Shown here: piece after piece, positions 8,800 through 47,146 of the stretch | How positions within the stretch are numbered: position 1 is the stretch's first letter | How the letters are laid out: the number at the start of each line of letters is the position of its first letter | Origin: a bacterium | Lineage (GTDB): Bacteria > SAR324 > NAC60-12 | Assembly: GCA_965205865.1 (NCBI GenBank) | Contig: CBDBHR010000017.1 | Span: 1 to 64,000, forward strand | Length of the DNA: 64,000 nucleotides | Direction: 5' to 3' | Made by a program: the position numbers and the translations under genes | The notes under the pieces: generated by a model | Database searches by the model: none | Told to the model about the DNA's origin: nothing | What the model saw: only the letters and a program-made list of their open reading frames with translations

Positions 8800-8862
8800 A
8801 TATTGTGAGATGAGGAATGCATAAAATTTAGCTTTACTTGCATTGAAATAGAGTCACGCTTC

Positions 8863-25413: not shown

Positions 25414-26546
25414 AAGAGCATCTTGGATTTCTTGAATTACATCAATGTGACGTTCTTGTTTGTATGACTCCTTCAAAGTTTTTCTGGCATCAGGATGATC
25501 GATTTGTCCCAAAGCCCATGCAGAATGAGACCGAATGAGCGGTTCTTCTTCCTGCAAACCGTGTTTCAGAGCCAGAATAGCCAGAGGACTGCCCCAGTTA
25601 CCCAAGGCAATGGCCACATTGCGTAAGAATCCTTTCCGTTTTGCCCGTTTGACTGGACTGTTTTTGAATCGTTTGCTGAATTCTTCCTGGGTCAAAAACA
25701 TCAATGAAATCAGATTCGGCATGATGTTTTCGGCTCTTGGTCGGAATCCGGGTTCCAGTGAGATAGGAGCATTTCTGTTCCAAGGACACACTTCCTGACA
25801 AATATCGCAACCAAAAACCATATTTCCCATGGTAGACCTGAATTGTTGAGGAACGCTCCCTTTCAATTCAATGGTGAGATATGAAATACAGCGTCTGGCA
25901 TCAATTTGTCGTTCGTTTAATATAGCATCAGTGGGGCAGGCTTCCAGGCACTTGGTGCAGTTTCCACAATCTCCCCAAGGGGTCACAACATCATATTTCA
26001 GCTTTATGTCCAGCAGGATTTCCGCTAAAAAAAACCAAGATCCCTTTTTCCAGTTGATCAGCATCGAGTTTTTACCCAGCCATCCCAGACCGGCTCGATG
26101 GGCGTATTCACGCTCTAGGATAGGACCGGTGTCCACGTAGACACGACTGTATTTTTGATGAGGAATCGTTGTTTCGATATAGTGGCGGAGTGCTTCCAAT
26201 TTTTCCCGTACCACCTGATGATAGTCCGTCCCCCAAGCATAAGAACTAATTCTTCCCTTGGAAGATTCGTTTTTTTCTGATTCAGGAATGGAGGCAGTGT
26301 GATAATTGATACCCAAAGAAATCAAAGAAAGGGTTTCCGGCATCACCTTGCGAAGATCTCGCTTTTTTTCATAGTGTTGATCTAGATATTCCATTTCTCC
26401 TGAATATCCCATAGTAAGCCATTGTCCGTAAATGTTAATACTTTGGCTTGGTGAGACAGGTATCACATGGACTAAATCAAAGCCGAGTTCTCGGGCTTTT
26501 TTTTTATTTCAACAGTGATTTCGACGTTGTTGGATATAGTTTCCAC
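25387..26546 (-). CDS. queG: Epoxyqueuosine reductase QueG (frameshift in an A9 tract near the 5' end)
   Basis: GEMEYL, YAWG.DYH, VDTGPILER, CGNCTKCLEACPT, DARRCISY, GCDICQEVCPWN, HEAT-repeat tail. GTG start at 26546 with GAGGAG RBS is one base out of frame. Confidence 0.9.
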
Positions 26547-26680: not shown

Positions 26681-29600
26681 TCACTGACTCTCTTTTAAAC
26701 TCTTCAAATAAACTGCAATTATGTTGGATCGTTCCCGGGCAAATTGCCCGTATTTTTTATGTTCGGAAGTCTTTGTTTTGATAACCCGGTCGTAGTGAAG
26801 TTTTGCTTTTCGCCACTGTTCCTGTTGCTCGTATAAAATGCCCAATTTCAGGTTAACTGTAATATACCATTCGAGGTTTTTTGAAATTGGACGGAATGCC
26901 ATTTTTGCAAGTATCTTGATGGTTTTGACAGGGTCGGATTCCAGTTCCGCCAATTGCCAGGCAGCACTCAATTCTTCTTCTTGGATTCCTCCCTTGTCTG
27001 CTTCGGCAAACCATTTTCGCGCCTGAGTTTTATCGTTCAAAGGACTCAAATAGAAACTTCCCAGTTTGTAGGCAAAATGAATTTGATCATCCGTGTCTCT
27101 CAATAAAGGATAGGTTTGTTCATAGACGTCTACTACTTTTCTATAATTTTTTTCGTGCTCATAGATGACGGACAAACTCTTAGTCAAAAAGATCAGAGTT
27201 GCCTGATCTTCGATCGAGACAATTTTGAGGGCATTGCTATAAAACTTTTCAGCAAGCTGATTGTCAGATAATTTAAGGGCCGCCTCTCCTCGAGTAAGCA
27301 AAGCTTCCAGGGATTCTGCTTTAGAGGCATCCAGCTTTCCCCAATCCTGATATGCGTCCAAAATGCCTTGCCAATTTTTTTGATGACGCTCGGCATAAAC
27401 CAGGACCTCATAAAGTTCATGGCTTGGAGTAAAATTTTGTAGGCTGAATCCATTTCGAATGCGCAAGGCCACGTCTTGCCATGATTTGTTTTTAATCAAT
27501 TGATCCAACTCTTGAATGGCATTGTTTTTTTCAATCTCTTGAATCCGTTTTTCCGCGTATTCTTGAAGTTCCAAATCTTCCTTTTTCGTGATTGCTTTAT
27601 CGCCAGCCATCACACGGTATTTTTTCAGAGCTTCTGGTAAAAGTTGATGTTTTTCATATAAAATTGCCAGACGATAATTAACATTTAATGCCCACTCGGG
27701 TTTCAATGAGCGTTCGGTGAGGTTGTTCAAAAGTTGAATTGCCTGATCCATTTCTCCCAACTCTTCGGCAATGTCACTCAGCAACAGAATTGCGCGCACC
27801 TCTAAGTCAGTCGCTTGACCCCGGTCCACTTTTTGGAGCCATTGCCTTGCCTTATCGTACTCTTGGAGAGAATCGTAGTATATTTGCCCTATCACAAGAG
27901 CATACTTTTGTTGAGCTGTCGTTTCGCTGAGATGGGGAATCAGGTCTTGTTCATATATTTGTACCACACTTATATAGTCTTCATCATTGAGGTATGAATC
28001 CGCCAATTGAAAGACAATCCCTTCTCTCAACTCCAGGTCGATTTCCGGAAGGGATAGGATTTTTTTGTAAAGGTCTCTACTCTTTTCAAGGCGATTTAAT
28101 TTTTCTTCCGTCTCTGCCCAATCGATTAAAAATTCTGATTTTTGAACTTCTTTTGGAAAAACAGATTCCCAGCGTATATAAGTCGCTGCAACATTTTTCA
28201 AATCCTCGAGTTGGTGATAAGCATCCAGCAATATTTGAAAGTGGTCGGGGAGCAATGGAAAGTTTTTTCTTTTTAAAAATTCTTCGATATGCGTCGCCAT
28301 GCTATTCCAGTCTTTAGTTTCCTGGTATATTTCTATCAATTTTTCGAAAGCGAATGTTTCATAATTTGGATTATGTTTGATAGCGTGCAAATCAACTACC
28401 GCCTGCTTCCATTGTTTAGTCTGGTGGAAACAGACACTCCTGGCATAGAGTACAAATTGCCGGTCTGCTGGTTTCAAGGTAGAAAAGACCTCTCTGCTTT
28501 CTTTAAGAATCTTTTCGCATTGATTGTTCTTTAGAGCTATATCGATGTCCTTCATCCAAAAGTAGTTTCTGTGTTGATCACTCAACGTCGAGTTGTTTCT
28601 CGCCTCTGCCAGCAGGTTTTGCAATTCTCGATGACGATTCTCTCTCTCAAGAAGCTGTGATAATTGCAGGATCAATTCCACATCATTTTGATATTCTTTG
28701 CTTTTTCTAGCAAACTCGAGTTCTCTAATTGCCTGTACATTATCCTCTTGATTGATAAAAAGCTGTCCCAGTTCATAGTGAACGCCAGCTACATGAGTAC
28801 TATCCCCAGTTTTTAAGTATTGCATATAATATGAAATCGTTTCCAGTGGTTCATTTAATTCGAGAAAAAGTTTGCCTATACGTCGAAGAGCGCGAGCATG
28901 ATATTGTTTGTCTTCCGTCTGCAGATAATTCTGGTAGAGTTCGACAATGCCTTCCAAGTGAGCTCTTTTTTGCTGAGACTCAGGTTGGCTGAGCAAGATT
29001 TGATACTCCCCTTCGGCTTTGAAAAACAGGGTGGATTGACGTAGGGGAAATCGAGGAAATTGCTCTAATTTATCAAAAAAAGCGACGGCCTCTTTGTAAT
29101 TTTGCTTCTCCCACTCCTGCTGCCCAAGCTGATAGTAAAGCGCAGCGATCCTTGCATTGGCATCGCCTTGATACTGGTTGTCTTCCGTTAACAAATAATT
29201 TTGGTAAAGTTGCGCGATTGCTTCCAGGCGAGTTCGTTCATACTTTGACTTTGGTTCAATCAACAAGATTTGATACTCACCTTCAGCTTTGAGATAGAGG
29301 ACCGGGTGACGCAAGGGAAATTGAGGAAATTGCTCGAGTTCGTCAAAAAATGCGAGGGCCTCTTTGTAGTTTTGCTTCTTCCATTCATTTTGACCGAGCT
29401 GGTAGTAAAGCGAAGCGATTCTCGCATTAGCGTCACTTTGATATTGGCTGTCTCCCGTCTCCAAATAGTTTTGGTAGAGTTGCACGATTGCTTCCAGACG
29501 AGTTCGTTCATGCTTTGACTTTGGTTCGCTCAACAACATTTGATACTCCCCTTCGGCTTTGAGAAAAAGGGTGGGATGGCGTAGAGGGAACTGCGGGAAT

Positions 29601-32600
29601 TGCTTGAGTTCGTCAAAAAAAGTGAGGGCCTCTTTGTAGTTTTGCTTCTTCCATTCGTTCTGGCCGAGTTGAAAGTAAAGCGAAGCGATCCTCGCTCTGG
29701 CATCGCTTCGATACTGTTCGTCCTGGGTTACCAAATAGTTTTGGTAGAGTTGCGCAATGGCTTCCAATCGAGCTCGTTCGTGCTGTGATTCAGGCTGATT
29801 GAGTAGAATTTGATATTCCCCTTCAGCTTTGAGAAAAAGGGCGGGGTGACGCAGGGCGAATTGAGGGAATTGTTCCAGTTCGTCAAAAAAAGTGATGGCC
29901 TCTCTGTAGTTTTGCTTTTCCCATTCATTCTGCCCGAGTTGATAGTAAAGTGAAGCGACCCTCGCTCCGGCATCGCTTCGATACTGTTCGTCCCGGGTCA
30001 CCAAATAGTTTTTGTAGAGTTGCGCAATAGCTTCCAATCGAGCTCTTTCGTGCTGTGATTCAGGCTGACTGAGAAAAATTTGATATTCCCCTTCGGCTGT
30101 GAGAAAGAGGGTAGGGTGACGTAGAGAGAACTGGGGGAATTGCTCTAATTCATTAAAAAAAGCAACGGCTTCTTTGTAGTTTTGCTTTTCCCATTCATTC
30201 TGTCCGAGTTGATAGTAAAGCGAAGCGATCCTCGCATTGGCATCGCTTTGGAACTCATTGTCCTCGGTTTTGAGATAATTCTGGTAGAGTTGCGCAATGG
30301 CTTCCAGGCGAGCTCGTTTGCGCAGCGTTTGAGGCTCGCTGAGCAGAATTTGATACTGTCCTTCGGCTTTGAGAAAGAGGGCCAGATGCCGTTGAGAGAA
30401 CTGAGGGAATTGCTCGACTTTCTCAAAAAAAACAACGGCTTCTTTGTAGTTTTGTTTTTCCCACTCTAACTGACCAATCTGGTAGTAAAGCAAGGCAATC
30501 CTCGCTCTGGCATCGCCTTCGTACTTGCTGTCCTGGCTCTTTAAATAGTTCTGGAAGAATTTCACGATGGTTTCCAAGTGAATTCTTTTATGCTGAGACT
30601 CTGGCTGGCTGAGCAGAATTTGATATTCCCCTTCGGCTTTGAGAAAGAGAGTGGAGTGACGTAAGGGGAATTGAGGAAATTGCTCGAGTTCGTCAAAAAA
30701 AGCGATCGCTTCTTTGTAGTTTCGCTTTTCCCACTCCAACTGACCGAGCTGATAGTAAAGTGAAGCAATCCTCGCATTGGCATCGTTTTGGTACTGACGG
30801 TCCTCAGTTTTAAGGTAGTTTTGATAGAGTTGAATGATACTTTCCATTCGTGCTCGTTTATGTTGGGACTCAGGTTCACCGAGCAGGATTTGATACTCCC
30901 CTTCAGCTTTGAGAAAGAGAGTGGGGTGACGTAAGGGGAATTGAGGGAATTGATCGAGTTCGTAAAAAAAAGCGATCGCTTCTTTGTAATTTTGCTTTTC
31001 CCATTCCTCCTGTCCGAGCTGGTAATAAAGCGAAGCGACCCTCGCTTTAGCATCGTCTTGGAACTTGCTGTCCTCGGTTTTGAGGTAGTTCTGATAGAGC
31101 TGAATTATGGCTTCCTTGCGAGCACCCGTTTGCTTGGACTGAGGCTCGCTCTGCAGGATTTGATACTGCCCTTCGGCTTTGAGAAAAAGGGTGGAGTGGC
31201 TCTGACGAAATTGAGGGAATTGCTCGAGTTCGTCAAAAAAGGCAAGGGCTTCATGATAGTTTTGCTTCTCCCATTCCTCCAGTCCGAGCTGATAGTAAAG
31301 CAAAGCGACCCTCGTATTGGCATCGTCTTTGTATTGGCTGTCCTCGGTTTTCAAATAGTTTTGATAGAGCTGAATGATGGCTTCCTTGCGAGCACCCGTT
31401 TGCTTGGACTGAGGTTCGCTCTGCAGGATTTGATATTCTCCTTCGGCTTTGAGAAAAAGAGCGGGGTGGCGCAGAGGGAATTGAGGGAATTGCTCGAGTT
31501 CGTCAAAATAAGCAATCGCTTCTCTATAGTTTTGCTTTTCCCATTCATTCTTACCAAGTTGGTAGTAAAGCGAAGCGATCTTCGCCCGGGCATCGGCTTG
31601 GTATTGGCTGTCTTCAGTCTCTAAATAGTCTTGGTAGAGCCGAACGATGGCTTCCAAACGAGCCCCTTTGTGCTCAGACTCAGACTGGCTCAATAAGATT
31701 AGGTACTCCCCTTCTGCTTTAAGAAAGAGGGTGGGATGGCGAAGAGGAAATTGAGGGAATTGTTCCAGTTTGTCAAAAAAAGTGATGGCTTCTTTGTAGT
31801 TTTGTTTTTCCCATTCATTCTGACCGAGCTGATAGTAAAGCGAAGCAATTCTAGCTCGTGCATCGGCTTGGTATTGGCTGTCCTCCGTCTCCAAATAGGT
31901 CAGGTAGAGCAACACGATGGTTTCCAGGCGAGTTTGATTGAGTTGCGATTCAGGCTGGCTCTGTAAAATTTGATACTCCCCTTCGGCTTTGAGAAAAAGG
32001 GTTGGATGACGTAAGGGGAACTGAGGGAATTGTTCTAGTATATCAAAAAATGCGATGGCTTCTTTATAGTTCTGTTTCTCCCATTCCTGCTGACCGATTT
32101 GGTAGTAAAGGGAAGCAATTCTCGCTTTTGCTTCTCCTTGATACTGGTTTTTCTCGGTTTTGAGATAATTCTGATAAAGCAACACAATGGCTTCCATCCG
32201 AGATCGATTCTGCTCAGGCTCAGGCCGATTGAGCAAGATTTGGTACTCCCCTTCGGCTTTGAGAAAAAGGGTGGAGTCGAGCAGAGGGAACTGAGGGAAT
32301 TGTTCCAGTTCGTCAAAAAAAGCGATCGCTTCTTTATAGTTTTGTTTTTCCCATTCCTGCTGACCGATTTGATAGTAAAGCGAAGCAATTCTCGCTCGAG
32401 CATCAGCGCGGTATTGGCTGTCTTCTGTTTCTAAATAGGTCTGATAGAGCGCAACGATGGTTTCCAGGTGAACCCGTTCGTGTTGTGATTCAGGCTGACC
32501 GAGTAAAATTTGATATTCCCCTTCGGCTTTGAGAAAAAGGGTTGGGTGACGTAAGGGGAATTGAGGAAATTGTTCCAGTTTGTCAAAAAACACGACGGCT

Positions 32601-38600: not shown

Positions 38601-41600
38601 CTCGCTCTGGCATCGTTTCGGTATTGGCTGTCCTGAGTTTCCAAATAGTTTTGGTAGATCTGCGCAAGGGCTTCCAAATGAGCTCGTTCGTGCTCTGATT
38701 TCGGTTGGCTGAGCATGATCTGATATTCCCCTTCGGCCTTGAGAAAGAGGGCAGGGTGGCGTAGCGGGAATTGAGGGAATTGTTCCAGTTTGTCAAAAAA
38801 CGCGATGGCTTCTTTGTAGTTTTGTTTTTCCCATTCCTGCTGACCGATTTGGTAGTAAAGCGAAGCAATCCTCGAATTTGCATCGCCTTGATATTGACTG
38901 TCCTGGGTCTCCAAATAGTTTTGGTAGAGTTGTACAATGGTTTCCAGGTGAACTCGTTTTTGCTCGGATTCAGGTTGGCTGAGCAAGATTTGATACTCTC
39001 CTTCGGCTTTGAGAAAGAGAGTGGGGTGGCGCAGAGGGAATTGGGGAAACTGCTCGAGTTCGTCAAAATAAGCAATCGCTTCTTTGTAGTTTTGCTTTTC
39101 CCATTCATTCTGGCCGAGTTGATAGTAAAGGGAAGCAACCCTCGCTCCGGCATCGCTTTTGTATTGGTTGTCCCCGGTTTTGAGATAGTTCTGATAGAGT
39201 TGAATGATGCCTTCCAGGCGAACCCGATTGCGTTGAGGTTCAGGCTGGCTGAGCAAGATCTGATATTCCCCTTCGGCCTTGAGAAAAAGAGTGGTGTGGC
39301 GCAGAGGGAATTGGGGAAAATGCTCGAGTTCGTCAAAATAAGCAATCGCTTCTTTATAGTTTTGCTTTTCCCATTCATTCTGGCCAATTTGATAGTAAAG
39401 GGAAGCAATCCTCGCTCTGGCATCGTTACGGTATTGGCTGTCCCGAGTCTCCAAATAGTTTTGGTAGAGTCTCACGATGGCTTCCAGGCGAACCCGATTG
39501 TGTTGAGGCTCAGGCTGGCTGAGCAAGATTTGATACTCCCCTTCGGCTTTGAGGAAGAGGGTGGGATGACGTAAGGGGAATTGAGGGAATTGTTCCAGTT
39601 CATCAAAAAAAGCGATGGCCTCTTTGTAGTTTTGTTTTTCCCATTCCTGCTGACCGAGCTGATAGTAAAGCGAAGCAATCCTCGCTCTGGCATCGTTCCG
39701 GTACTGATGGTCCTGGGTCTCCAAATAGTTTTGGTAAAGCCTCACAATAGCTTCCAGGCGAGTTCGTTCGTGCTGCGACTCAGGCTGGTTGAGCAAGATT
39801 TGATACTCTCCTTCCGCTTTGAGAAAGAGAGCAGGGTGGCGCAGAGGGAATTGGGGAAATTGCTCGAGCTCGTCAAAAAAAGCAATGGCTTCCTTGTAAT
39901 TTTCTTGTTCCCACTCATTCTGACCAAGTTGGTAGTAAAGAGACGCGATCCTTGCTCGGGAATCGTCTTGGTACCGATTGTCCTCGGTTTTGAGATAGTT
40001 CTGATAAAGATATATAACTTTTTCCATACCTGCCCGATCGTGCTGCGATTCAGGCTCGCTGAGCAGGATTTGATACTCCCCTTCGGCTTTCAGAAAAAGG
40101 GTGGAATGGAGCAGGGGAAATTGGGGGAATTGCTCGAGTTCGTTAAAAAATGCGATGGCTTCTTTGTAGTTTTGCTTTTCCCACTCTTGTTGACCAAGTT
40201 GATAGTATAGCAACGCGACTCGAGATCTGGCATCATCTTGATACTGGTCGTCCTCGGTTTTGAGATAGTTCTGATAGAGTTGAATAATGTCCTCTACGCG
40301 AACTCGTTTATTCCGGGACTCAGGTTGACTGAGCAGGATTTGATACTCCCCCTCGGCTTTCAGAAAAAGGATGGAGTGACGCAGAGGAAACTGAGGGAAT
40401 TGCTCCAATTCGTCAAAAAAAGCGATGGCTTCTTCAAAGTTTTTCTCATGCCATTCATACTGCCCGAGTTGATAGTAAAGCGAAGCGACCCGGGCTTCAG
40501 CATCACTTCGGTATTGGCTACTTTCGGTTTGGAGATAGTTTAGATAGAGCTGTATGATGTTTTCTATGCGAGCTTTGTTGTGCGGGGAATCCGGCTCGCT
40601 GAGCAGGATTTGATACTCCCCTTCGGCTTTCAGAAAAAGGATGGAGATGCGTTGGGGGAACTGTGGGAATTGCTCGAGTTCGTCAAAAAAAGCAATCGCT
40701 TCTTTGTATTTTTGCTTATCCCACTCACTCAGCCCGAGCTGGTAGTAAAGCGAAGCGATCCTTGCGCTGGCATCGCTTTGATACTGGCTGTCCCCGGTTT
40801 TGAGATAGTTTTTATAAAGCTGCGCAATAGTTTCCAGGTGAGCTCGTTTTTGCTCGGATTCAGGCCGACCGAGTGAGATTTGATACTCCCCTTCGGCTTT
40901 CAGAAAAAGGGTGGGGTGGCGCAGTGGAAACTGAGGAAATTGCTCGAGTTCGTCAAAAAAAGCAATCGCTTCTTTGTAGTTTTTCTCTTCCCATTCATTC
41001 TGCCCGAGTTGGTAGAATAGTGAAGCGATCCTCGCTCTGGCATCGGTTTCGTACTTGCTGTCCTCGGTTCCCAGATAATTTTTAAAGAGTTGTACAATGC
41101 CTTCCATGCGAACTCGATTGTGCTGCGATTTAGGCTGGTTCATCAAGATTTGGTATTCCCCTTCGGCTTTCAGAAAAAGGGCGGGGTGGCGCAGTGGAAA
41201 CTGAGGAAATTGCTCGAGTTTATCAAAAAAAGTGATCGCTTCTTTGAAATTTTGCTTTTCCCATTCCTCCTGTCCGAGCTGGTAATAAAGCGAGGCGACC
41301 CTCGCCCTGGCATCGGCTTGGTACTGATCGTCCTCCGTTATGAGATAGTTCTGATAGAGCTGAATGATGGCTTCCAGGCGAACTCGTTTATGCTGCAACT
41401 CGGGCTGGGTCAGCAGGATTTGATATTCCCCTTCTGCCTTGAGAAAAAGGGTGGGGTGACGCAAGGGGAATTGAGGAAATTGTTCCAGTTCGTCAAAAAA
41501 AGCAATCGCCTCTTTGAAGTTTTGCCTTTTCCACTGCAGTTGAGCAAGTTGATAGTAAAGCAAAGCAATCCTCGCATTGGCATCGTCCACGTACTGGCTG

Positions 41601-44600
41601 TCCTCGGTATTGAGATAGTTCTGATAGAGTATCACGATTGTTTCCATGCGAGCCCCTTTGTGCTGGGACTGAGGCTCGCTCAGCAGAATTTGATACTCCC
41701 CTTCGGCTTTCAGAAAAAGAGCCGGGTGGCGCAGGGGAAACTGAGGAAATTGCTCGAGTTCGTCAAAAAACGCGATGGCCTCTTTGTAGTTTTGCTTGTC
41801 CCATTCAATTTGACCGAGTTGGTAGTAAAGCGAAGCGATCCTCCCTCTGGCGTCGTCTTGGTACTCGCTGTCCTCGGTATCGAGATAGTTCTGATAAAGT
41901 TGAATGATGCCTTCCAGGCGAGTTCGTTTGCGCTGGGACTCAGGCTGATTGAGCAGGATTTGATACTCCCCTTCGGCTTTCAGAAAAAGGGTGGGATGGC
42001 GCAAATGGAATTGAGGAAATTGTTCTAATTCATCAAAAAAGGCGATGGCCTCTTCGTAGTTTTGCTTGTCCCATTCAATTTGACCGAGCTGGTAGTATAG
42101 CGAAGCGATCCTCGCTCTGGCATCCCCTTCGTATCGGCTATCTCCGGTTTTGAGATAGTTCTGATAGAGCTGAATGATGGCTTCCAGGCTAACTCGTTTG
42201 TGCTGGGTCTCGGGCTGACTCAGCAGGATTTGATATTCCCCTTCGGCTTTCAGAAAGAGTGCCGGGTGGCGTAGATGAAAAAGAGGGAATTGCTCTAGTT
42301 CGTCAAAAAAAGCAATCGCTTCTTTGTAGTTTTGCTTTTTCCACTGCAGTTGACCAAGTTGATAGTAAAGCAAAGCAATCCTCGCATTAGCATCGTCTTC
42401 GTACTGGCTGTCCTTGGTATTGAGATAGTTCTGATAGAGTTTCACGATGGCTTCCAAATGAGCCACTTTGTGCTGGGACTGAGGCTCGCTCATCAGTATT
42501 TGATACTCCCCTTCGGCTTTCAGAAAGAGAGCCGGGTGGCGCAGGGGAAACTGAGGGAATTGCTCGAGTTCGTCAAAAAACGCGATGGCCTCTTGGTAGT
42601 TTTGCCTGTCCCATTCAATTTGACCGAGTTGGTAGTATAGCGAAGCGATCCTCGCTCTGGCGTCGTCTTGGTACTTGCTGTCCTCGGTTTTGAGATAGTT
42701 CTGATAGAGCTGAATAATGCCTTCCAGGCGAGTTCGTTTGTGCTGGGACTCAGGCTGATTGAGCAGGATTTGATACTCCCCTTCGGCTTTCAGAAAAATG
42801 GTGGGATGGCGCAACGGGAATTGGGGAAATTGTTCCAATTCATCAAAAAACGCGATGGCCTCTTCGTAGTTTTGCTTGTCCCATTCAAATTGACCGAGTT
42901 GGTAGTAAAGCGAAGCGATCCTCGCTCTGGCATCGTTCCGGAACTGCTTGTCCTTTGTCTCCAAATAGTTTTGGTAGAGTCGCACGATGGTTTCCAAGCG
43001 CACTCGTGACTGCTGGGTCTGAGGCTGGCTGAGCAAGATCTGATACTCTCCTTCGGCTTTCAGAAAAAGGGTGGGGTGACGCAAAGGGAATTGTGGGAAT
43101 TGCTCCAGCTTGTCGAAAAAAGCGATCGCATCTTTGTAGTTTTGCTTCTCCCATTCAATTTGACCGATCTGGTAGTAAAGCAATGCGATCCTCGCTCTGG
43201 CGTCGTCTTGGTATTGGTCGTCTTGAGTCTCTAAATAGTTTTGGTAGAGTAGCACGATGGCTTCCAAACGAGTCCGTTTCTGTTGGGATTCGGGCAGGCC
43301 GAACAAGATTTGATATTCTCCTTCTGCTTTGAGAAAGAGAGTGGGGTGACGCAGGGGGAATTGGGGGAATTGCTCCAATTTATCAAAAAAACCGATAGCT
43401 TCCTTGTAATTTTGCTTTTTCCATTCATTCTGACCAAGCCGATAATAAAGCACGGCAATCCTTGCATTGGCATCACTTTGATACTGGATGTTCCCGGTTT
43501 TAAGATAATTCTGAAAGAGAAGTACGATGGCTTCCAGGCGAACTCGTTTGTGCTCAGATTCTGGCAGGCTGAGCAGGATCTGATACTCCCCTTCGGCTTT
43601 GAGAAAGAGAGCCGGGTGGCGTAAAGGGAATCCCGGAAATTGTTCCAACTCATCAAAAAAAGTGATGGCTTCCCTGTAATTATGCCGTTGCCACTCCTGC
43701 TGACCCAGTTGATAATAAAGCAAAGCAACCCTCGCCTTAGCATCGTCTTGGTACTGATTGTCCTTGGTTTTCAAATAGTTCTGATAGAGTTGGACAATAG
43801 CTTCCAGGCGAGCTCGTTTGTGCTGTGATTTAGGCCGCTTGAGCAAGATTTGATACTCGCCTTCGGCTCTGAGAAAAAGAGTCGGGTGGCGGTGGGGAAA
43901 TTGAGGAAATTGCTCGAGTTTCTCAAAAAATGCGATGGCCTCTTTGTAGTTTTGCTTTCCCCATTCATTCTGACCGAGTTGATAGTAAAGCAAAGCGATC
44001 CTCGCTCTGGCGTCGTCTTGGTACTCGCTGTCCTCGGTTTTGAGATAGTTCTGATAGAGCTGTACAATGGCTTCCAGGCGAGATCTTTTTTGCCGTAACT
44101 CAGCCAGACTGAGCATGATTTGATACTCTCCTTCGGCTTTGAGAAAGAGTGCCGGATAGCGTAATGGAAATTGAGGAAATTGCTCCAATTTCTCAAAAAA
44201 AGTAATGGCCTCTTTGTAATTTTGCTTTTTCCATTCAATTTGACCGAGTTGGTAGTAAAGCGATGCAATCCTCGCGTTTGCTTCTCTTTGGTACTGGTCG
44301 TCCTGGGTCTCCAAGTAGTTTTGATAGAGTTGCGCGATGGTTTCCATTTCAACTCGACTATGCCGGGACTCAGGCCGACTGAGAAAGATTTGATACTTCC
44401 CTTCGGCTTTGAGAAAAAGGGTGGGTTGACGCAGAGGGAAATGAGGGAATTGCTCGAGTTCGTCAAAAAAAACGATGGCCTCTTTGTAGTTTTGCTTCTC
44501 CCATTCCATTTGACCGAGTTGGTAATAAAGCGAAGCAATCCTCGCTTTGGCATAGTCTTGGTACTGGCTGTCCTCGGTTTTGAGATAGTTCTGATAGAGC

Positions 44601-46315
44601 TGTACAATAGCTTCCATACGAGCTCCTTTTTGCTGCAATTCAAGCTGACTGAACAGGATTTGATACTCGCCTTCGGCTTTAAGAAAGAGGGTGGAGTGAC
44701 GCAGGGGAAACTTTGGGAATTGCTCCAATTTTTCAAATAAAGCGATCGCTTCTTCGTAGTTTTGCTTTTCCCACTCCCTTTGACCAAGCTGGTAATAAAG
44801 CGAAGCAATTCTCGCTTTAGCCTCGTCTTGGTACTGACGGTCCTTGGTTTTGAGGTAATTTTGATAGAGCAGAATGATGGTTTCCATGAGAGCCCCTTTG
44901 TGCTGGGACTCAGGTACGCGCAGCAAGATTAGATATTCCCCTTCGGCTTTGAGAAACAAAGCGGGATTCCTTAGAGGGAACCGCGGGAATTGCTCGAGTT
45001 CGTCAAAAAAAGCGATCGCTTCTTTATAGTTTTGCTGTTTCCACTCTTTCTGCCCGAGCTGATAGTAAAGCGTGGCAATCCTCGCTTTACTATCTTCCAG
45101 GTACTGGTTGTCCGTGGTTTTAAGATAATTCTGAAAGAGAAGTACGATGGCTTCCAGACGAGCCTTATTGTGCTGCGACTCAGGTTGGCTGAGCAATATT
45201 TGATACTCCCCTTCGGCTTTGAGAAAAAGAGTGGGATGGCGTAAGGGAAATTGAGGGAATTGCTCGAGTTCGTCAAAAAAAGCGATTGCTTTTTTGTAAT
45301 TTTTTCGTTTCCACTCACTCTGGCCGAGTTGGTAGTAAAGCGTTGCGATCCTCTCATTAGCAATTTTTTGATATTGGTTGTCCCCGGTTTTGAGGTAGTT
45401 TTGATAGAGCCCTGCGATAGCTTCCATACGAGCCCCTTTTTTGCGGGTCTCAGACTCACCCAGCAATATTTGATACTCCCCTTCAGCTTTGAGAAAGAGA
45501 GTGGAATCGCGCAGGGGGAACTGAGGGAATTGCTCCAATTTGTCAAAAAAAGCAATCGCTTCTTTGAAGTTTTTTTGCCCCCACTCATTTAAGGCGAGTT
45601 GGTAATAAATTTTGGCCTGACGGTCTTCGTCTTGAATATGGTTTACATATTCCTGCAACCATTTTTTCGCTTTCTGAAATTCTTGTTGATGCTGATAGGC
45701 CAATCCCAACAGATGGAGCCACTCAATTTTCATCTCCTTGGTCAGGTGTTCTTTGGTTGTTATTTTGGAAAGTGTATTACTGGCTTTCTGATAAAGAGGA
45801 ATCGCTTCTGAAGATTGATTTTGACGGGATAATTCCGCTGCATAAAAAAAAGAGTTTCCTAACCAATAGAGGGCAATTTCCCGATTACGACTTTCTGGAA
45901 ATTTTTTTGTGAACTCCCCTAAAATTGAAATGCTTCGCTCGTATTGCAACAAGCTTGCTCTCAATAGACCTTCCCGAAACATCGCATCTTCAGTCCATTG
46001 ACCCGTTGGATATTCTTGACGATAATTTTGGTATTCGTCCGCAACCCCTGACTTGTCTTCCGAACTCAATTCTCCGGACCGTATTTTCAAGAAAATAACT
46101 GCCTCTCGAAATTGACCCTCAGGAAATTTATTGAGGTATTCTTCTGCTTCCTCTTGAGCAAGTTCATGAAATCCGTCCTTGAAAAATCCCTGAATTATTT
46201 GAAACTGTTCTTCCTCAGTTAAAGAAGCCAATGTATTGATAGGAAAAAATAACCCCATGAGGAGTAGTAAGAAGATTATGAAATCCACAAAATAATATTT
46301 ATTTAAAGAGGCCAT
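26681..46315 (-). CDS. Giant exported TPR/alpha-solenoid repeat protein (about 6,544 aa)
   Basis: Open frame of 19.6 kb. Likely start MASLNKYY followed by a hydrophobic signal (..FPINTLA-S); non-repetitive TPR-like N- and C-terminal regions; 62 central 90-aa units. Confidence 0.9.
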   Translation of the reverse strand: MASLNKYYFVDFIIFLLLLMGLFFPINTLASLTEEEQFQIIQGFFKDGFHELAQEEAEEYLNKFPEGQFREAVIFLKIRSGELSSEDKSGVADEYQNYRQEYPTGQWTEDAMFREGLLRASLLQYERSISILGEFTKKFPESRNREIALYWLGNSFFYAAELSRQNQSSEAIPLYQKASNTLSKITTKEHLTKEMKIEWLHLLGLAYQHQQEFQKAKKWLQEYVNHIQDEDRQAKIYYQLALNEWGQKNFKEAIAFFDKLEQFPQFPLRDSTLFLKAEGEYQILLGESETRKKGARMEAIAGLYQNYLKTGDNQYQKIANERIATLYYQLGQSEWKRKNYKKAIAFFDELEQFPQFPLRHPTLFLKAEGEYQILLSQPESQHNKARLEAIVLLFQNYLKTTDNQYLEDSKARIATLYYQLGQKEWKQQNYKEAIAFFDELEQFPRFPLRNPALFLKAEGEYLILLRVPESQHKGALMETIILLYQNYLKTKDRQYQDEAKARIASLYYQLGQREWEKQNYEEAIALFEKLEQFPKFPLRHSTLFLKAEGEYQILFSQLELQQKGARMEAIVQLYQNYLKTEDSQYQDYAKARIASLYYQLGQMEWEKQNYKEAIVFFDELEQFPHFPLRQPTLFLKAEGKYQIFLSRPESRHSRVEMETIAQLYQNYLETQDDQYQREANARIASLYYQLGQIEWKKQNYKEAITFFEKLEQFPQFPLRYPALFLKAEGEYQIMLSLAELRQKRSRLEAIVQLYQNYLKTEDSEYQDDARARIALLYYQLGQNEWGKQNYKEAIAFFEKLEQFPQFPHRHPTLFLRAEGEYQILLKRPKSQHKRARLEAIVQLYQNYLKTKDNQYQDDAKARVALLYYQLGQQEWQRHNYREAITFFDELEQFPGFPLRHPALFLKAEGEYQILLSLPESEHKRVRLEAIVLLFQNYLKTGNIQYQSDANARIAVLYYRLGQNEWKKQNYKEAIGFFDKLEQFPQFPLRHPTLFLKAEGEYQILFGLPESQQKRTRLEAIVLLYQNYLETQDDQYQDDARARIALLYYQIGQIEWEKQNYKDAIAFFDKLEQFPQFPLRHPTLFLKAEGEYQILLSQPQTQQSRVRLETIVRLYQNYLETKDKQFRNDARARIASLYYQLGQFEWDKQNYEEAIAFFDELEQFPQFPLRHPTIFLKAEGEYQILLNQPESQHKRTRLEGIIQLYQNYLKTEDSKYQDDARARIASLYYQLGQIEWDRQNYQEAIAFFDELEQFPQFPLRHPALFLKAEGEYQILMSEPQSQHKVAHLEAIVKLYQNYLNTKDSQYEDDANARIALLYYQLGQLQWKKQNYKEAIAFFDELEQFPLFHLRHPALFLKAEGEYQILLSQPETQHKRVSLEAIIQLYQNYLKTGDSRYEGDARARIASLYYQLGQIEWDKQNYEEAIAFFDELEQFPQFHLRHPTLFLKAEGEYQILLNQPESQRKRTRLEGIIQLYQNYLDTEDSEYQDDARGRIASLYYQLGQIEWDKQNYKEAIAFFDELEQFPQFPLRHPALFLKAEGEYQILLSEPQSQHKGARMETIVILYQNYLNTEDSQYVDDANARIALLYYQLAQLQWKRQNFKEAIAFFDELEQFPQFPLRHPTLFLKAEGEYQILLTQPELQHKRVRLEAIIQLYQNYLITEDDQYQADARARVASLYYQLGQEEWEKQNFKEAITFFDKLEQFPQFPLRHPALFLKAEGEYQILMNQPKSQHNRVRMEGIVQLFKNYLGTEDSKYETDARARIASLFYQLGQNEWEEKNYKEAIAFFDELEQFPQFPLRHPTLFLKAEGEYQISLGRPESEQKRAHLETIAQLYKNYLKTGDSQYQSDASARIASLYYQLGLSEWDKQKYKEAIAFFDELEQFPQFPQRISILFLKAEGEYQILLSEPDSPHNKARIENIIQLYLNYLQTESSQYRSDAEARVASLYYQLGQYEWHEKNFEEAIAFFDELEQFPQFPLRHSILFLKAEGEYQILLSQPESRNKRVRVEDIIQLYQNYLKTEDDQYQDDARSRVALLYYQLGQQEWEKQNYKEAIAFFNELEQFPQFPLLHSTLFLKAEGEYQILLSEPESQHDRAGMEKVIYLYQNYLKTEDNRYQDDSRARIASLYYQLGQNEWEQENYKEAIAFFDELEQFPQFPLRHPALFLKAEGEYQILLNQPESQHERTRLEAIVRLYQNYLETQDHQYRNDARARIASLYYQLGQQEWEKQNYKEAIAFFDELEQFPQFPLRHPTLFLKAEGEYQILLSQPEPQHNRVRLEAIVRLYQNYLETRDSQYRNDARARIASLYYQIGQNEWEKQNYKEAIAYFDELEHFPQFPLRHTTLFLKAEGEYQILLSQPEPQRNRVRLEGIIQLYQNYLKTGDNQYKSDAGARVASLYYQLGQNEWEKQNYKEAIAYFDELEQFPQFPLRHPTLFLKAEGEYQILLSQPESEQKRVHLETIVQLYQNYLETQDSQYQGDANSRIASLYYQIGQQEWEKQNYKEAIAFFDKLEQFPQFPLRHPALFLKAEGEYQIMLSQPKSEHERAHLEALAQIYQNYLETQDSQYRNDARARIASLYYQLGQNEWEKQNYREAIAYFDELEQFPQFPLRQSTLFLKAEGEYKILLNQPEFQNNRVRMEAIIQLYQNYLKTEDNQFRSDARGRIASLYYQLGQSEWEKQNYKEAIVFFNELKQFPLFPLRHSALFLIAEGGYQILLSQPESQRNRTRQEAIVQLYQNYLETQDGQYQDDANSRIASLYYQIGQQEWEKQNYKEAIAFFDKLEQFPQFPLRHPTLFLKAEGEYQILRNLPKSQHERTRLEAIAQLYQNYLETEDIQYQDDAKARIASLYYQLGQQEWEQQNYKEAIAFFDELEQFPQFSLRHPTLFLKAEGEYQILLSQPESQHNRVQMETIVLLYQNYLKTEDSQYQGEAKARIASLYYQLGQNEWEQQNYKEAIAFFDELEQFPQFPLRHQTLFLKAEGEYQILQSQPESRYKRVRPEAIVKLYQNYLETQDSQYQDDAKARIASLYYQLGQQEWEKQNYKEAITYFDKLEQFPQFPLRHPTLFLKAEGEYQILLSQSESQHERARLEAIAQLYQNYLKTEDVQFQDDAKARIASLYYQLGQNEWEQQNYKEAIAFFDELEQFPQFPLRHPALFLKAEGEYQILMSQPESQHNRVQMETIVLLYQNYLKTEDSQYQGEAKARIASLYYQIGQQEWEKKNYKEAISFFDELEQFPQFSLRHQALFLKAEGEYQILQSQPESRYKPVRPEAIVQLYQNYLETQDSQYQDDANSRIASLYYQIGQQEWEKQNYKEAVAFFDKLEQFPQFPLRHPTLFLKAEGEYQILLGQPESQHERARLEAIAQLYRNYLKTEDVQFQDDAKARIASLYYQLGQQEWKKQNYKEAIAFFDELEQFPQFPLRHPTLFLKAEGEYQILMSQPESQHNRVQMETIVLLYQNYLKTEDSQYQGEAKARIASLYYQIGQQEWEKKNYKEAISFFDELEQFPQFPLRHPTLFLKAEGEYQILLSQPEPQHNRVRLEAIVRLYQNYLETRDSQYRNDARARIASLYYQIGQNEWEKQNYKEAIAYFDELEHFPQFPLRHTTLFLKAEGEYQILLSQPEPQRNRVRLEGIIQLYQNYLKTGDNQYKSDAGARVASLYYQLGQNEWEKQNYKEAIAYFDELEQFPQFPLRHPTLFLKAEGEYQILLSQPESEQKRVHLETIVQLYQNYLETQDSQYQGDANSRIASLYYQIGQQEWEKQNYKEAIAFFDKLEQFPQFPLRHPALFLKAEGEYQIMLSQPKSEHERAHLEALAQIYQNYLETQDSQYRNDARARIASLYYQLGQNEWEKQNYREAIAYFDELEQFPQFPLRQSTLFLKAEGEYKILLNQPEFQNNRVRMEAIIQLYQNYLKTEDNQFRSDARGRIASLYYQLGQSEWEKQNYKEAIVFFNELKQFPLFPLRHSALFLIAEGGYQILLSQPESQRNRTRQEAIVQLYQNYLETQDGQYQDDANSRIASLYYQIGQQEWEKQNYKEAIAFFDKLEQFPQFPLRHPTLFLKAEGEYQILRNLPKSQHERTRLEAIAQLYQNYLETEDIQYQDDAKARIASLYYQLGQQEWEQQNYKEAIAFFDELEQFPQFSLRHPTLFLKAEGEYQILLSQPESQHNRVQMETIVLLYQNYLKTEDSQYQGEAKARIASLYYQLGQNEWEQQNYKEAIAFFDELEQFPQFPLRHQTLFLKAEGEYQILQSQPESRYKRVRPEAIVKLYQNYLETQDSQYQDDAKARIASLYYQLGQQEWEKQNYKEAITYFDKLEQFPQFPLRHPTLFLKAEGEYQILLSQSESQHERARLEAIAQLYQNYLKTEDVQFQDDAKARIASLYYQLGQNEWEQQNYKEAIAFFDELEQFPQFPLRHPALFLKAEGEYQILMSQPESQHNRVQMETIVLLYQNYLKTEDSQYQGEAKARIASLYYQIGQQEWEKKNYKEAISFFDELEQFPQFSLRHQALFLKAEGEYQILQSQPESRYKPVRPEAIVQLYQNYLETQDSQYQDDANSRIASLYYQIGQQEWEKQNYKEAVVFFDKLEQFPQFPLRHPTLFLKAEGEYQILLGQPESQHERVHLETIVALYQTYLETEDSQYRADARARIASLYYQIGQQEWEKQNYKEAIAFFDELEQFPQFPLLDSTLFLKAEGEYQILLNRPEPEQNRSRMEAIVLLYQNYLKTEKNQYQGEAKARIASLYYQIGQQEWEKQNYKEAIAFFDILEQFPQFPLRHPTLFLKAEGEYQILQSQPESQLNQTRLETIVLLYLTYLETEDSQYQADARARIASLYYQLGQNEWEKQNYKEAITFFDKLEQFPQFPLRHPTLFLKAEGEYLILLSQSESEHKGARLEAIVRLYQDYLETEDSQYQADARAKIASLYYQLGKNEWEKQNYREAIAYFDELEQFPQFPLRHPALFLKAEGEYQILQSEPQSKQTGARKEAIIQLYQNYLKTEDSQYKDDANTRVALLYYQLGLEEWEKQNYHEALAFFDELEQFPQFRQSHSTLFLKAEGQYQILQSEPQSKQTGARKEAIIQLYQNYLKTEDSKFQDDAKARVASLYYQLGQEEWEKQNYKEAIAFFYELDQFPQFPLRHPTLFLKAEGEYQILLGEPESQHKRARMESIIQLYQNYLKTEDRQYQNDANARIASLYYQLGQLEWEKRNYKEAIAFFDELEQFPQFPLRHSTLFLKAEGEYQILLSQPESQHKRIHLETIVKFFQNYLKSQDSKYEGDARARIALLYYQIGQLEWEKQNYKEAVVFFEKVEQFPQFSQRHLALFLKAEGQYQILLSEPQTLRKRARLEAIAQLYQNYLKTEDNEFQSDANARIASLYYQLGQNEWEKQNYKEAVAFFNELEQFPQFSLRHPTLFLTAEGEYQIFLSQPESQHERARLEAIAQLYKNYLVTRDEQYRSDAGARVASLYYQLGQNEWEKQNYREAITFFDELEQFPQFALRHPALFLKAEGEYQILLNQPESQHERARLEAIAQLYQNYLVTQDEQYRSDARARIASLYFQLGQNEWKKQNYKEALTFFDELKQFPQFPLRHPTLFLKAEGEYQMLLSEPKSKHERTRLEAIVQLYQNYLETGDSQYQSDANARIASLYYQLGQNEWKKQNYKEALAFFDELEQFPQFPLRHPVLYLKAEGEYQILLIEPKSKYERTRLEAIAQLYQNYLLTEDNQYQGDANARIAALYYQLGQQEWEKQNYKEAVAFFDKLEQFPRFPLRQSTLFFKAEGEYQILLSQPESQQKRAHLEGIVELYQNYLQTEDKQYHARALRRIGKLFLELNEPLETISYYMQYLKTGDSTHVAGVHYELGQLFINQEDNVQAIRELEFARKSKEYQNDVELILQLSQLLERENRHRELQNLLAEARNNSTLSDQHRNYFWMKDIDIALKNNQCEKILKESREVFSTLKPADRQFVLYARSVCFHQTKQWKQAVVDLHAIKHNPNYETFAFEKLIEIYQETKDWNSMATHIEEFLKRKNFPLLPDHFQILLDAYHQLEDLKNVAATYIRWESVFPKEVQKSEFLIDWAETEEKLNRLEKSRDLYKKILSLPEIDLELREGIVFQLADSYLNDEDYISVVQIYEQDLIPHLSETTAQQKYALVIGQIYYDSLQEYDKARQWLQKVDRGQATDLEVRAILLLSDIAEELGEMDQAIQLLNNLTERSLKPEWALNVNYRLAILYEKHQLLPEALKKYRVMAGDKAITKKEDLELQEYAEKRIQEIEKNNAIQELDQLIKNKSWQDVALRIRNGFSLQNFTPSHELYEVLVYAERHQKNWQGILDAYQDWGKLDASKAESLEALLTRGEAALKLSDNQLAEKFYSNALKIVSIEDQATLIFLTKSLSVIYEHEKNYRKVVDVYEQTYPLLRDTDDQIHFAYKLGSFYLSPLNDKTQARKWFAEADKGGIQEEELSAAWQLAELESDPVKTIKILAKMAFRPISKNLEWYITVNLKLGILYEQQEQWRKAKLHYDRVIKTKTSEHKKYGQFARERSNIIAVYLKSLKESQ
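28871..45610 (-). repeat. 62 x 270-bp intragenic tandem repeat array
   Basis: The gatagtaaag/ggtagtaaag marker (LYYQ) recurs every 270 bp from 29131 to 45601 with no phase change. Confidence 0.93.
32475..39597. repeat. Near-identical 3.3-kb direct duplication (32475-35817 and 36255-39597)
   Basis: Sequence lines match at offset 3,780 (14 units), with one mismatch noticed at 32592/36372; the ORF track gives identical translations at this offset. Confidence 0.9.
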
Positions 46316-46341
46316 TTTTAATCTTTTCTGAGATAGTGGTT

Positions 46342-46656
46342 TCAGTGAAATATTTTGATTTGTTGAATTACATTTTCCCAGCAAGCGCTGTTGATGTTGT
46401 CAACACGAACGACCTTATTTCGGTTGTTTACGCCATGCTGGATGGAAATATTGGAATGGGGAACTTTTAGCGCTTTGGCGAGAAAAGAAATGCGCTGTTT
46501 GTTTGCCTGTCTTCCTTTGGGGGCGGCAGTAAGACTTAGTTTGATTTTATTGTCAAAGACACGTCCCCATGACACTTTGGAAGCGCGTGGTTGGACATAT
46601 AAGTAGAGAGTGAGTTGGTTCCCTTCTAATACAAAACCGTTTTCTGCAGACATCAT
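46342..46656 (-). CDS. DUF167 (YggU/UPF0235) family protein
   Basis: LYVQPRAS...IKLSLTA.P....AN....FLAKALKVP.S.I.I..G...RNK. Confidence 0.8.
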   Translation of the reverse strand: MMSAENGFVLEGNQLTLYLYVQPRASKVSWGRVFDNKIKLSLTAAPKGRQANKQRISFLAKALKVPHSNISIQHGVNNRNKVVRVDNINSACWENVIQQIKIFH

Positions 46657-47146
46657 TGCACCTGAAATATGAACCAATCAATTATTCGGAATTTCCCCTT
46701 TGCAATATCTTTGCATGAACTTGACCACTTTGCTGCTTACAAAAAATTTTGTATTGAAAAGCGCTATGAATCAAGAATCTTCAAGTTTCAGCACTTCTTT
46801 CTGGCCGGAGATGTCATCAAGTCTCATTGGAAGGCGTGAATTTATAATTCGACGGATTTCATTCCTTTCTTCAAAATATTCCTCGTTTTGTTCTGCGAAT
46901 TAGGCTCCCTTTTTCAACTTCATAATTGTATGGCTTGATTGGCTGGTCAGGTTTTTTAAACAGTAGTCACTGATTTGCTGAAAAAGGTTCTCTACAGGTG
47001 AACTGGATGATCGTGAGTCAATTGTTGCAAAGGCTAAAAAAATAATGAATACGTTCTCTGTTGAACGATCATACAAACTTCTGTAGACTAATAAGATAAT
47101 TTACAACAATTCAAAAAAATAGTCATCCGGAATTAGAGATAATTGT

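Follow-up and report, generated by a model that had tools for sequence, protein, structure and literature searches.

A giant, putatively exported TPR solenoid in a SAR324 bacterium, expanded from a single 90-residue module

The minus strand of a 64,000-nt stretch of DNA from a SAR324 bacterium (the window) carries a gene for a protein of several thousand residues, which, as far as can be read from the sequence, is a rod made of one native 90-aa module copied about 50 to 60 times within one genus. The preliminary description had presented the gene as a stand-alone undescribed system, while the comparisons below identify it as a conserved TPR protein, uncharacterised and normally about 1,050 aa long, in which one native module has been hyper-expanded in this genus. 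The reading we prefer, with a probability of about 0.5, is that a Sec-exported solenoid of 783 kDa, expanded from this short form, would act as an elongated multivalent envelope scaffold. SAR324 is an uncultured marine lineage, and what is said of the function of the giant protein is inferred. The features of the locus are as follows.

46342..46677, minus strand: DUF167/YggU gene, upstream, with a 26-nt gap to the ATG of the giant gene
26681..46315, minus strand: giant TPR gene from its ATG, 6,544 aa, 783 kDa, pI 5.2
46223..46315, minus strand: signal-peptide-like N-terminus, about 31 aa, predicted from hydropathy and the cleavage-site pattern
45626..46222, minus strand: N-terminal TPR cap, mature part (Pfam TPR_6 36.5 bits, YfiO, PF13525, 32.2 bits)
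28886..45625, minus strand: array of 62 units, 270 nt / 90 aa each, four predicted helices per unit
36255..39597, minus strand: first copy of a perfect duplicate (units 24-34 and parts of the flanking units)
32475..35817, minus strand: second copy of the perfect duplicate (units 38-48 and flanks)
26684..28885, minus strand: C-terminal divergent TPR domain, 734 aa (Pfam TPR_2, TPR_12, TPR_6)
28430..28519, minus strand: two Cys, residues 5933 and 5962 from the ATG, 29 residues apart
25387..26466, minus strand: queG (epoxyqueuosine reductase), downstream, the conserved right-hand synteny anchor

In the list of open frames the gene appears as a minus-strand frame at 26681..46384, 6,567 aa long from a TTG start, and its first ATG at 46315 leaves 6,544 aa. 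The same start methionine occurs in three database alleles of the giant protein, P0156 and P0157 among them. The single open frame claimed beforehand was recovered as one minus-strand frame at 46315..26681; its strand had not been given. Besides this copy, the frame is intact in four more full-length alleles, namely G001 (5,227 aa, from a single-contig genome), P0155 (5,914 aa), and P0156 and P0157 (5,554 aa each), and the family also contains a truncated fragment of 3,137 aa (P0006). Seven short contigs of a metatranscriptome run (X20) matched the part of the gene at 26681-36445 with 95-99% identity, three in the tail and four in the array; since DNA can be present in such RNA libraries, they are at most a weak hint of expression.

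The array is strikingly regular. Tandem Repeats Finder gave one array at 28922-45573 with a period of 270, 61.7 copies, 78% matches, 0% indels and a score of 15257. A short anchor motif was found 62 times in the protein with all 61 spacings being exactly 90 aa, the unit table places units 1-62 at 45625..28886, and a unit HMM matched 62/62 units near full length. The 62 phased 270-bp units reported from the first inspection are thus all present in this assembly, in frame and without indels. The dN/dS ratio was 0.116 among the units here (1,275 pairs), 0.126 among the units of G001 (1,035 pairs) and 0.113 for cross-species pairs (2,346 pairs), with synonymous sites near saturation. A ratio of about 0.12 at saturated synonymous sites argues that the array is translated and selected, and by such substitution patterns the giant TPR gene is a real gene, translated and under selection. 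The unit consensus of the two species is identical at 87/90 positions, and the most variable positions cluster at 55-72 and 79-90, which are loop and helix segments. There is also a higher-order periodicity of three units, the mean identity being 0.804 at lag 3 vs about 0.77 elsewhere. The G001 units have a maximum pairwise nucleotide identity of 0.837 and are all intact, with one 1-aa insertion among the 47. Between the species, only the terminal units are collinear.

An array of near-identical repeats might wholly or partly be an assembly artefact, and one part of this array gives some ground for this concern. Units 38-48 are base-for-base the same as units 24-34, with 3,225 identical bases (32593-35817 = 36373-39597) and 117 more beyond one mismatch. 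Moreover, the conspecific alleles P0156 and P0157, which stand for two clusters with 13 member sequences, lack exactly 11 of the units, namely 37-47. The other 51 units are thus corroborated independently, and the count of 62 is seen in this assembly only. DNA contigs from runs X1, X4 and X5, belonging to three studies, covered all 30 bins of 26681-36445. Inside the array they are broken into pieces of 200-500 bases with no joints or loose ends listed, so they bear neither way on the 11-unit duplicate and its junctions, and their summed depth, which is not a copy number, was about 1.3- to 1.4-fold higher over the duplicate. The extra 11 units thus stem from a duplication of very recent date or from an error of assembly; an artefactual origin of this block is possible, albeit unlikely. 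Inflation of the array at large is a far weaker proposition. Indeed, 51 of the 62 units are collinear one-to-one with those of independent alleles at 91-100% identity, the latter residing on contigs of 268 and 858 kb, and the sister species has 47 well-differentiated units in a single-contig genome. The contigs of the three runs, as said, left no bin uncovered. Furthermore, the same contig keeps apart two copies of a 1.7-kb insertion sequence with 2 differing bases between them, and by resolving them it behaves like a long-read assembly. Taken with these observations, general inflation is highly improbable.

The origin of the array can be followed through the family. The giant gene, its G001 counterpart and the gene of G004 are all flanked by trpF and queG, and these common flanks identify the giant protein, by position, as the orthologue of a TPR protein of about 1,050 aa that is restricted to SAR324. 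The C-terminal domain was matched in 39 of the 41 genomes searched of the SAR324 order; nearly all of the SAR324 genomes searched therefore have a member of this uncharacterised envelope protein family. The family is small, with 35 representatives at E<=1e-30 among 1.84 billion, and most members have about 1,050-1,130 aa and one unit each. Counting the repeats across the family gave a stepwise series: the unit HMM found one copy in the short forms (e.g., P0002, P0003, P0005, P0008), 3 in P0007, 7 in P0004, 32 or more in the P0006 fragment, 47 in G001 and 62 here, and with 51 each in P0156 and P0157 and 55 in P0155 the range in this genus is 47-62. In other lineages of the family, it was different modules that expanded. 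In this genus the module was amplified in tandem by unequal recombination, and the cap and the C-terminal domain were kept. A three-unit query, run against proteins of 474-2000 aa, recovered only three same-genus fragments, P0161 and P0007, a locus scan with a single-protein query found no relative, and the same scan with a two-row alignment found only the G001 record. A literature search on SAR324, sponge symbionts, giant genes and tetratricopeptide gave no description of the giant protein, and in the accessible text of a giant-gene preprint TPR figures solely as an accessory domain and SAR324 is absent (10.1101/2023.11.21.568195).

The giant protein is predicted to be a continuous all-helical TPR solenoid. 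The AlphaFold model of units 2-7 (pLDDT 90.6, pTM 0.66) shows four helices in each 90-aa unit and is free of strands, in line with the two hairpins per unit proposed from the sequence, and the modelled short form is likewise all helical (pLDDT 90.8). Only TPR-type Pfam families were matched in the cap, three units and the tail, all above their cut-offs, which places the protein in the TPR superfamily: TPR_6 in the cap (36.5 bits, cut-off 26.3), TPR_14 (42.5), TPR_2 (40.6) and TPR_12 (38.5) in the three units, and TPR_2 (50.3) and TPR_12 (49.0) in the tail. Foldseek gave at least 424 PDB matches at E<=0.001, those listed being helical-repeat scaffolds, mostly TPR; for both models these were only generic TPR scaffolds such as Ctr9, OGT, SPY, IFT-A and Ski3, and the periplasmic flagellar scaffold 9hmf_K was also matched. 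The matches in the protein Atlas are generic long TPR_6 proteins of Bacteroidota and Spirochaetota.

An important question was whether the giant protein is a BamD or a CpoB, as one orthologue is publicly annotated under the BamD or CpoB/YbgF name and a BamD/CpoB-type pattern had been noticed in the units. The likeness exists at the level of the repeat only, i.e., the solenoid is locally most like BamD, yet is neither BamD nor CpoB. The giant protein scored 33.0 with NCBIfam OM_YfiO (TIGR03302; cut-off 81.4) and 43.6 with tol_pal_ybgF (TIGR02795; 90.1), both in its cap, and 17.1 with CpoB (NF008068; 383). In a genome-wide BamD search the giant locus reached 19.5 bits (26 with neighbouring stretches), and a separate BamD candidate of normal size, a 272-aa frame at G000:C30:443370-443972, scored 80.4 bits, with equivalents in G001 (84.6) and G007 (78.6). 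The 36 window frames scanned contain no Tol or Pal family, which speaks against CpoB/YbgF. BamD (YfiO) and CpoB (YbgF) are periplasmic proteins made up of TPR_6-type repeats that are long, but the giant protein is about 25 times longer and has no lipid anchor. With scores below the cut-offs and a BamD encoded elsewhere, the chance that it serves as the organism's BamD or CpoB/YbgF is close to nil.

At the N-terminus, an n-region with a Lys is followed by a hydrophobic core and then by a Thr-Leu-Ala / Ser site. Its hydropathy (12-residue Kyte-Doolittle windows starting at residues 1-40) has a maximum of 3.16 at residue 12, and 17 of 24 family proteins reach at least 2.0 in the first ~50 residues. 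Several of the remaining members without a signal-like stretch are annotated from a later Met. The signal-peptide-like N-terminus suspected from the beginning is hence predicted by a 12-residue hydrophobic stretch followed by a small-x-small site, and the giant protein is probably Sec-exported. It has no lipobox Cys at the N-terminus, and the first 5,900 residues are free of Cys altogether; its 6,544 residues include just two, which correspond to the nearly invariant Cys pair of the family. As initially described, a TPR-like part of 230 aa with Pfam TPR-type matches precedes unit 1 and some 730 aa of divergent TPRs, in fact a 734-aa tail with TPR families, follow the array. The cap with the first unit is 67% identical to G001. 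The C-terminal domain is the most conserved part of the protein across the SAR324 order, with an identity of 75% to G001 and 42-46% to four other genera.

The giant gene lies in a neighbourhood of trpF, DUF167 and queG, and is probably co-transcribed with the DUF167/YggU gene. The housekeeping context attributed to it is correct for the DUF167 and queG flanks here, but does not extend to the relatives, where an amidase and an S41 protease come after the gene. An Amidase_3 gene adjoins the TPR gene in G004, G007 and G016 and lies about 3 kb away in G008, and in G004 and G007 an S41 protease with a PDZ domain follows the TPR gene. The linked amidase is of the AmiC type with its own YbgF-like TPR N-terminus. 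Linkage to the amidase was found in 4 of the 39 matched genomes, these being 4 of the 5 best-scoring ones outside this genus. This genus has neither the amidase nor the S41 protease as neighbours and no Amidase_3 gene at all, and the linkage therefore speaks to the ancestor and not to the giant form. Among the 36 scanned window frames (12, of which 3 are parts of the giant gene, and 24 others), no secretion gene was found, in agreement with the earlier claim. Since secretin genes are present in the genome, a release of the giant protein to the surface is possible.

Among the closest parallels for the short form are NlpI-Prc of E. coli and LbcA-CtpA of P. aeruginosa, described as periplasmic TPR adaptors which link an S41 C-terminal processing protease to peptidoglycan hydrolases (PMC7049810, PMC10671308, 10.1101/2021.07.29.454410). 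Like them, the family consists of exported TPR proteins, the short form of the closest relatives adjoining an S41/PDZ protease and an amidase. In contrast, NlpI and LbcA are lipoproteins and a few hundred residues long; the giant protein has 6,544 aa and no lipobox, and the protease and amidase neighbours are missing in this genus. No sequence relation beyond the TPR repeats was seen, and neither protein was among the 60 listed PDB profile matches or the structure matches listed, in which generic TPR dominated. By this analogy, the ancestral short form was probably a TPR adaptor for the control of cell-wall hydrolases. As the amidase and protease partners and all Amidase_3 genes have gone from this genus, the expanded protein has probably changed its job.

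Once exported, the protein may form one continuous rod or spring. As estimated from the general geometry of consensus TPRs, about 146 hairpins would extend over the order of 100 nm or more, which is far wider than the periplasm. Such a length argues against a ruler standing across the periplasm; a rod too long to cross the envelope would rather lie along it. With the same strongly conserved surface on each unit it could become a long multivalent scaffold. Its conserved ends might dock it, with the array fixing distance or elasticity; alternatively, the units might each take up one copy of a repeated ligand. A more daring version, and a doubtful one, is a single-chain TPR nanospring or rod of more than 100 nm in the periplasm or at the surface, with 50-60 identical faces and its growth tied to the loss of all LytC-type cell-wall amidases. 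If true, each face would bind one repeat of a periodic partner, e.g., glycan strands, a surface layer or host matrix, and the rod may hold unseparated daughter cells, or symbiont and host, together.

The main rival of the envelope scaffold is a host-interaction protein of a host-associated SAR324 bacterium, whose array would be released or displayed on the surface to bind host proteins or matrix, with array length and copy-number variation tuning avidity or evading host recognition. TPR-class eukaryotic-like proteins of sponge symbionts have reportedly been proposed to bind host proteins or matrix. In line with this, single eukaryotic-like proteins are described as altering bacteria-sponge interactions (2026; PMC13747020), the huge expansion is confined to one genus, its copy number varies between species and strains (47, 51, 55, 62), the variable unit positions are clustered in the two segments named above, and the genome has secretins. 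On the other hand, the protein descends from an envelope protein conserved across habitats in 39 of the order's 41 searched genomes, the selection on its units is purifying and not diversifying, and the locus has neither a secretion system nor a C-terminal secretion signal. A role toward a host is therefore, on balance, unlikely, although it deserves more weight than the idea of a runaway expansion of little specific function, i.e., a tolerated spacer inflated by unequal crossing-over with its length being nearly neutral. That the array is recombinationally active is evident from the lag-3 periodicity, the perfect 3.3-kb duplicate and the 11-unit difference between strains; the collinearity limited to terminal units and the expansion of other modules in other lineages fit as well. 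A neutral spacer is nonetheless hard to reconcile with a frame kept without an indel over 62 units and with one 1-aa insertion in the 47 of G001, with dN/dS of about 0.12 and a consensus retained at 87/90 positions after synonymous saturation, with the age of the G001 units, all still intact, and with the cost of making an exported protein of 783 kDa. These observations make a nearly neutral length rather improbable.

The preserved intermediates with 1, 3, 7 and 47-62 copies show how a normal envelope scaffold of about 1,050 aa grew into a 783-kDa protein, with every unit copy under purifying selection during amplification. The loss of the amidase, the protease and all Amidase_3 genes coincides with the growth of the array, which suggests the hypothesis of a part in cell separation or host attachment.

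Other long repeat proteins can be set beside it. The cap, units and tail have TPR families only, confirming that RTX, autotransporter or Ig-like motifs are lacking there, and the window has no secretion genes, which sets the protein apart from giant repeat adhesins (RTX/T1SS, autotransporter, Ig-like). The gliding machinery of Myxococcus xanthus includes GltI/AgmK, a giant TPR protein with 4,132 aa, which is similar in being a bacterial protein of several thousand residues made mostly of TPR-like repeats and thought to be a scaffold (PMC3169522). According to its description, however, GltI has no signal peptide and is limited to Myxococcales (PMC3169522), as opposed to the signal-like N-terminus, the phased near-identical 90-aa units and the SAR324 restriction of the giant protein. 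Designed consensus TPR (CTPR) superhelices, described as nanosprings (PMC8944806), have the same long unbroken stack of near-identical helix-turn-helix repeats, and engineered CTPR chains were the best PDB match of the family profile (9qhb_A, 8.5e-42). The natural unit differs from them in having 90 aa and two unequal hairpins vs 34 aa, and the Foldseek TM to an 8-repeat CTPR was as low as 0.17-0.28, indicating a different superhelix geometry. Such a long and regular natural TPR array offers a ready-made test of solenoids as springs or rulers in cells.

The giant gene is one open frame, as had been claimed, and lies on the minus strand (26681..46384; 6,567 aa counted from TTG). Its first ATG lies at 46315, the end coordinate of the preliminary description, and gives a protein of 6,544 aa, 783 kDa and pI 5.2; the same start methionine is found in three database alleles of the protein. 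Only TPR-type families were detected by Pfam in the cap, units and tail. The neighbours reported earlier are present as well, with a DUF167 gene upstream in the same orientation at a distance of 26 nt and queG downstream, and the 24 further window frames scanned were all housekeeping or insertion-sequence genes.

Parts of the giant protein and its gene
31 residues from the ATG, minus strand: signal-like start
Through residue 230, minus strand: cap (N-terminal TPR part)
45625..28886, minus strand: 62-unit array, from the unit table
734 aa after the array, minus strand: tail (C-terminal TPR domain)

Tandem Repeats Finder returned one array, spanning 28922-45573, with a period of 270, 61.7 copies, 78% matches and 0 indels. 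The protein contains 62 occurrences of a short anchor motif, with 61 of 61 spacings being exactly 90 residues, which bears out the 62 phased 90-aa units for the assembly. Mean pairwise identity of the units is 0.768 for DNA and 0.746 for protein, with a higher-order three-unit periodicity (mean identity 0.804 at lag 3). Variability clusters at position 13 and within the segments 55-72 and 79-90, and one 12-residue helix segment is almost invariant, charged residues included. The median dN/dS among the units was 0.116 (Nei-Gojobori; 1,275 pairs from 51 units, with units 38-48, the second copy of a perfect duplicate, dropped), and synonymous differences were near saturation. The gene is thus real and under selection, and a near-neutral repeat expansion is an improbable account of it.

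The genome of the window comprises 4.74 Mb in 30 contigs. A public annotation of the G007 orthologue gives its source as a SAR324 cluster bacterium. Among 41 genomes of the SAR324 order, the tail was matched in 39; examples with short frames of 1,046-1,130 aa are G007, G016, G009, G008 and G006. The sister species G001, a single 4.26-Mb contig, encodes a 5,227-aa protein of 47 units, of which one has a 1-aa insertion, and its giant gene has the same flanks as in the window (tilS, phosphorylase, queG, giant gene, trpF). Its units (mean DNA identity 0.684, maximum 0.837, dN/dS 0.126) are older than those of the window, and the two unit consensuses are identical at 87 of 90 positions. A search among proteins of 3,611-11,493 aa added further giants, namely P0155 (55 units, 77% identity) and the conspecific alleles P0156 and P0157 (51 units, 96-97% identity), while a three-unit query against proteins of 474-2000 aa returned only fragments and two few-unit forms.

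Unit copies in family members, counted with the unit profile
Short forms: 1, at the equivalent place
P0007: 3
P0004 (from G004): 7
P0006 (truncated protein): at least 32
G001: 47
Giant gene of the window: 62

The giant gene and the short TPR protein of SAR324 are orthologous; the former grew by tandem amplification, its copy number varying. When 1.84 billion representatives were searched with the short form, 326 matched at E<=0.001 and 35 did so at E<=1e-30, so the family is narrow. The module amplified in the array is native to this family and its amplification is specific to the genus, and the proposal of an undescribed stand-alone system was not upheld. Other lineages have enlarged different modules of the same protein to 2,130-2,300 aa (G005, G012 and the genus of G003, G014, G020 and G024); internal amplification is a recurrent tendency in the family. 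The periods of these modules are 354, 108, 219 and 327 nt (including L017 of G005, 7760-8508, and L018 of G012, 8831-9602). Tail residues 445-558 were matched repeatedly in family members (rows examined: G003, G014, G020, G024, G005 and G021).

Whether all 62 units exist is a separate matter. Units 24-34 and 38-48 are base-for-base identical; the identical stretch spans 3,225 bases (32593-35817 = 36373-39597), followed by one mismatch and 117 further identical bases. P0156 and P0157 align unit by unit with units 1-36 and 48-62 (91-100% per unit) and lack exactly units 37-47, so that the extra block (the duplicate's second copy) reflects a very recent duplication specific to this strain or else an error of assembly. 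Judging from the sequence, it may have arisen when look-alike units within the three-unit periodicity recombined. Short-read contigs compared with the array did not bridge the duplicate junctions. The species of the window has a secure count of at least 51 units, and its relatives one of 47-55; the conspecific alleles answer the concern about assembly inflation for the 51, but the extra 11 come from one assembly, and an artefact comprising the whole array is very improbable. Two insertion-sequence copies of 1.7 kb (6249-7945 and 22760-24456; 460-aa DDE_Tnp_1_4 transposase), differing at 2 of 1,697 bases, are kept apart in the contig, which suggests long reads; one copy sits in the tilS-phosphorylase interval, which is uninterrupted in G001. 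A variant strain from a second study (metagenome run X4, 17-kb contig) differs at 18 of 2,335 tail bases (window 26681-29015), so the gene is present in more than one population.

AlphaFold modeling of units 2-7 with an alignment of 87 natural six-unit windows (pLDDT 90.6, pTM 0.66) gave four helices per unit of ~21, 13, 18 and 16 residues, that is, the two hairpins supposed before. The short form P0002 (30 family rows; pLDDT 90.8, pTM 0.45) was modeled with ~55 helices and no strands, and the Foldseek matches listed for the models were only generic long TPR scaffolds at low TM. The giant protein is accordingly predicted to form a continuous TPR solenoid. Consensus TPRs have about eight repeats per turn and a ~7 nm pitch; by analogy, the ~146 hairpins would make a rod of ~100 nm or more, far wider than the periplasm.

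The signal-peptide-like N-terminus was recognized again by three features (a Lys, a 12-mer of strong hydrophobicity and a site of small-x-small type), with no lipobox. A similar start occurs in 17 of 24 family proteins examined, several others being annotated from a later Met. The only two Cys, 29 residues apart in the tail, are the nearly invariant pair of the family. Both features would fit an exported protein with one disulfide, probably a Sec substrate.

The locus of G004 and G007 runs from trpF through an unassigned 590-aa gene, the TPR gene and an Amidase_3 gene (574-585 aa) to the gene of a 530-aa S41 protease with PDZ, followed in G004 by queG. The Amidase_3 gene adjoins the TPR gene in G016 and lies ~3 kb off in G008. 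The linked amidase has a YbgF-like TPR N-terminus: a YbgF/BamD-like region of ~350 aa precedes the Amidase_3 domain (L016:2776-4497 in G007; G004:C27 ~8023-9777), for which Pfam gave no family except Amidase_3. The 590-aa protein is conserved in three genera at 59-68% identity (L016:8083-9852 in G007; G004:C27:965-2710; G008:C69:23642-25387), with no Pfam or NCBIfam match. Neither this gene nor the linked amidase and protease was found in the genus of the window (G000, G001). Amidase_3 (PF01520) was detected in 39 of the order's 41 genomes, the exceptions being precisely G000 and G001 (the latter a single contig); none of the 4 genomes searched for Amidase_2 (PF01510), namely G000, G001, G004 and G007, gave a match. 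Penicillin-binding proteins are present in the genus, hence a cell wall is made. As a single lineage event lies behind it, the coincidence of amidase loss with array expansion serves as a lead, not as a correlation.

The G004/G007 gene order recalls NlpI-Prc and LbcA-CtpA, reported to be TPR adaptors coupling an S41 protease to cell-wall hydrolases. The ancestor of the giant protein may have worked in hydrolase control, and the favoured reading is that the giant protein itself would act as an elongated multivalent envelope scaffold. A role in host interaction, suggested previously, is less likely. Identity with BamD or CpoB can practically be dismissed: the genome has a separate normal BamD candidate (272-aa frame, 80.4 bits), and NCBIfam scores of cap and tail are far under the cut-offs. 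An enlarged TPR scaffold is already known in GltI/AgmK, given as 4,132 aa in PMC3169522; the literature searched described neither this family nor any phased array in which a 90-aa unit recurs 47-62 times.

Elsewhere in the window, the aconitase X large subunit is split into two overlapping frames, 55508-56095 (profile 1-175) and 55950-56966 (profile 112-400), possibly by a frameshift or sequencing error. Mobile and defence gene fragments lie at 3560-4771 and 57583-58848, the former being part of an IS66-family transposase, with DUF6444, and the latter 421 aa of a Type ISP restriction-modification enzyme that take in the coupler and the start of the methylase.
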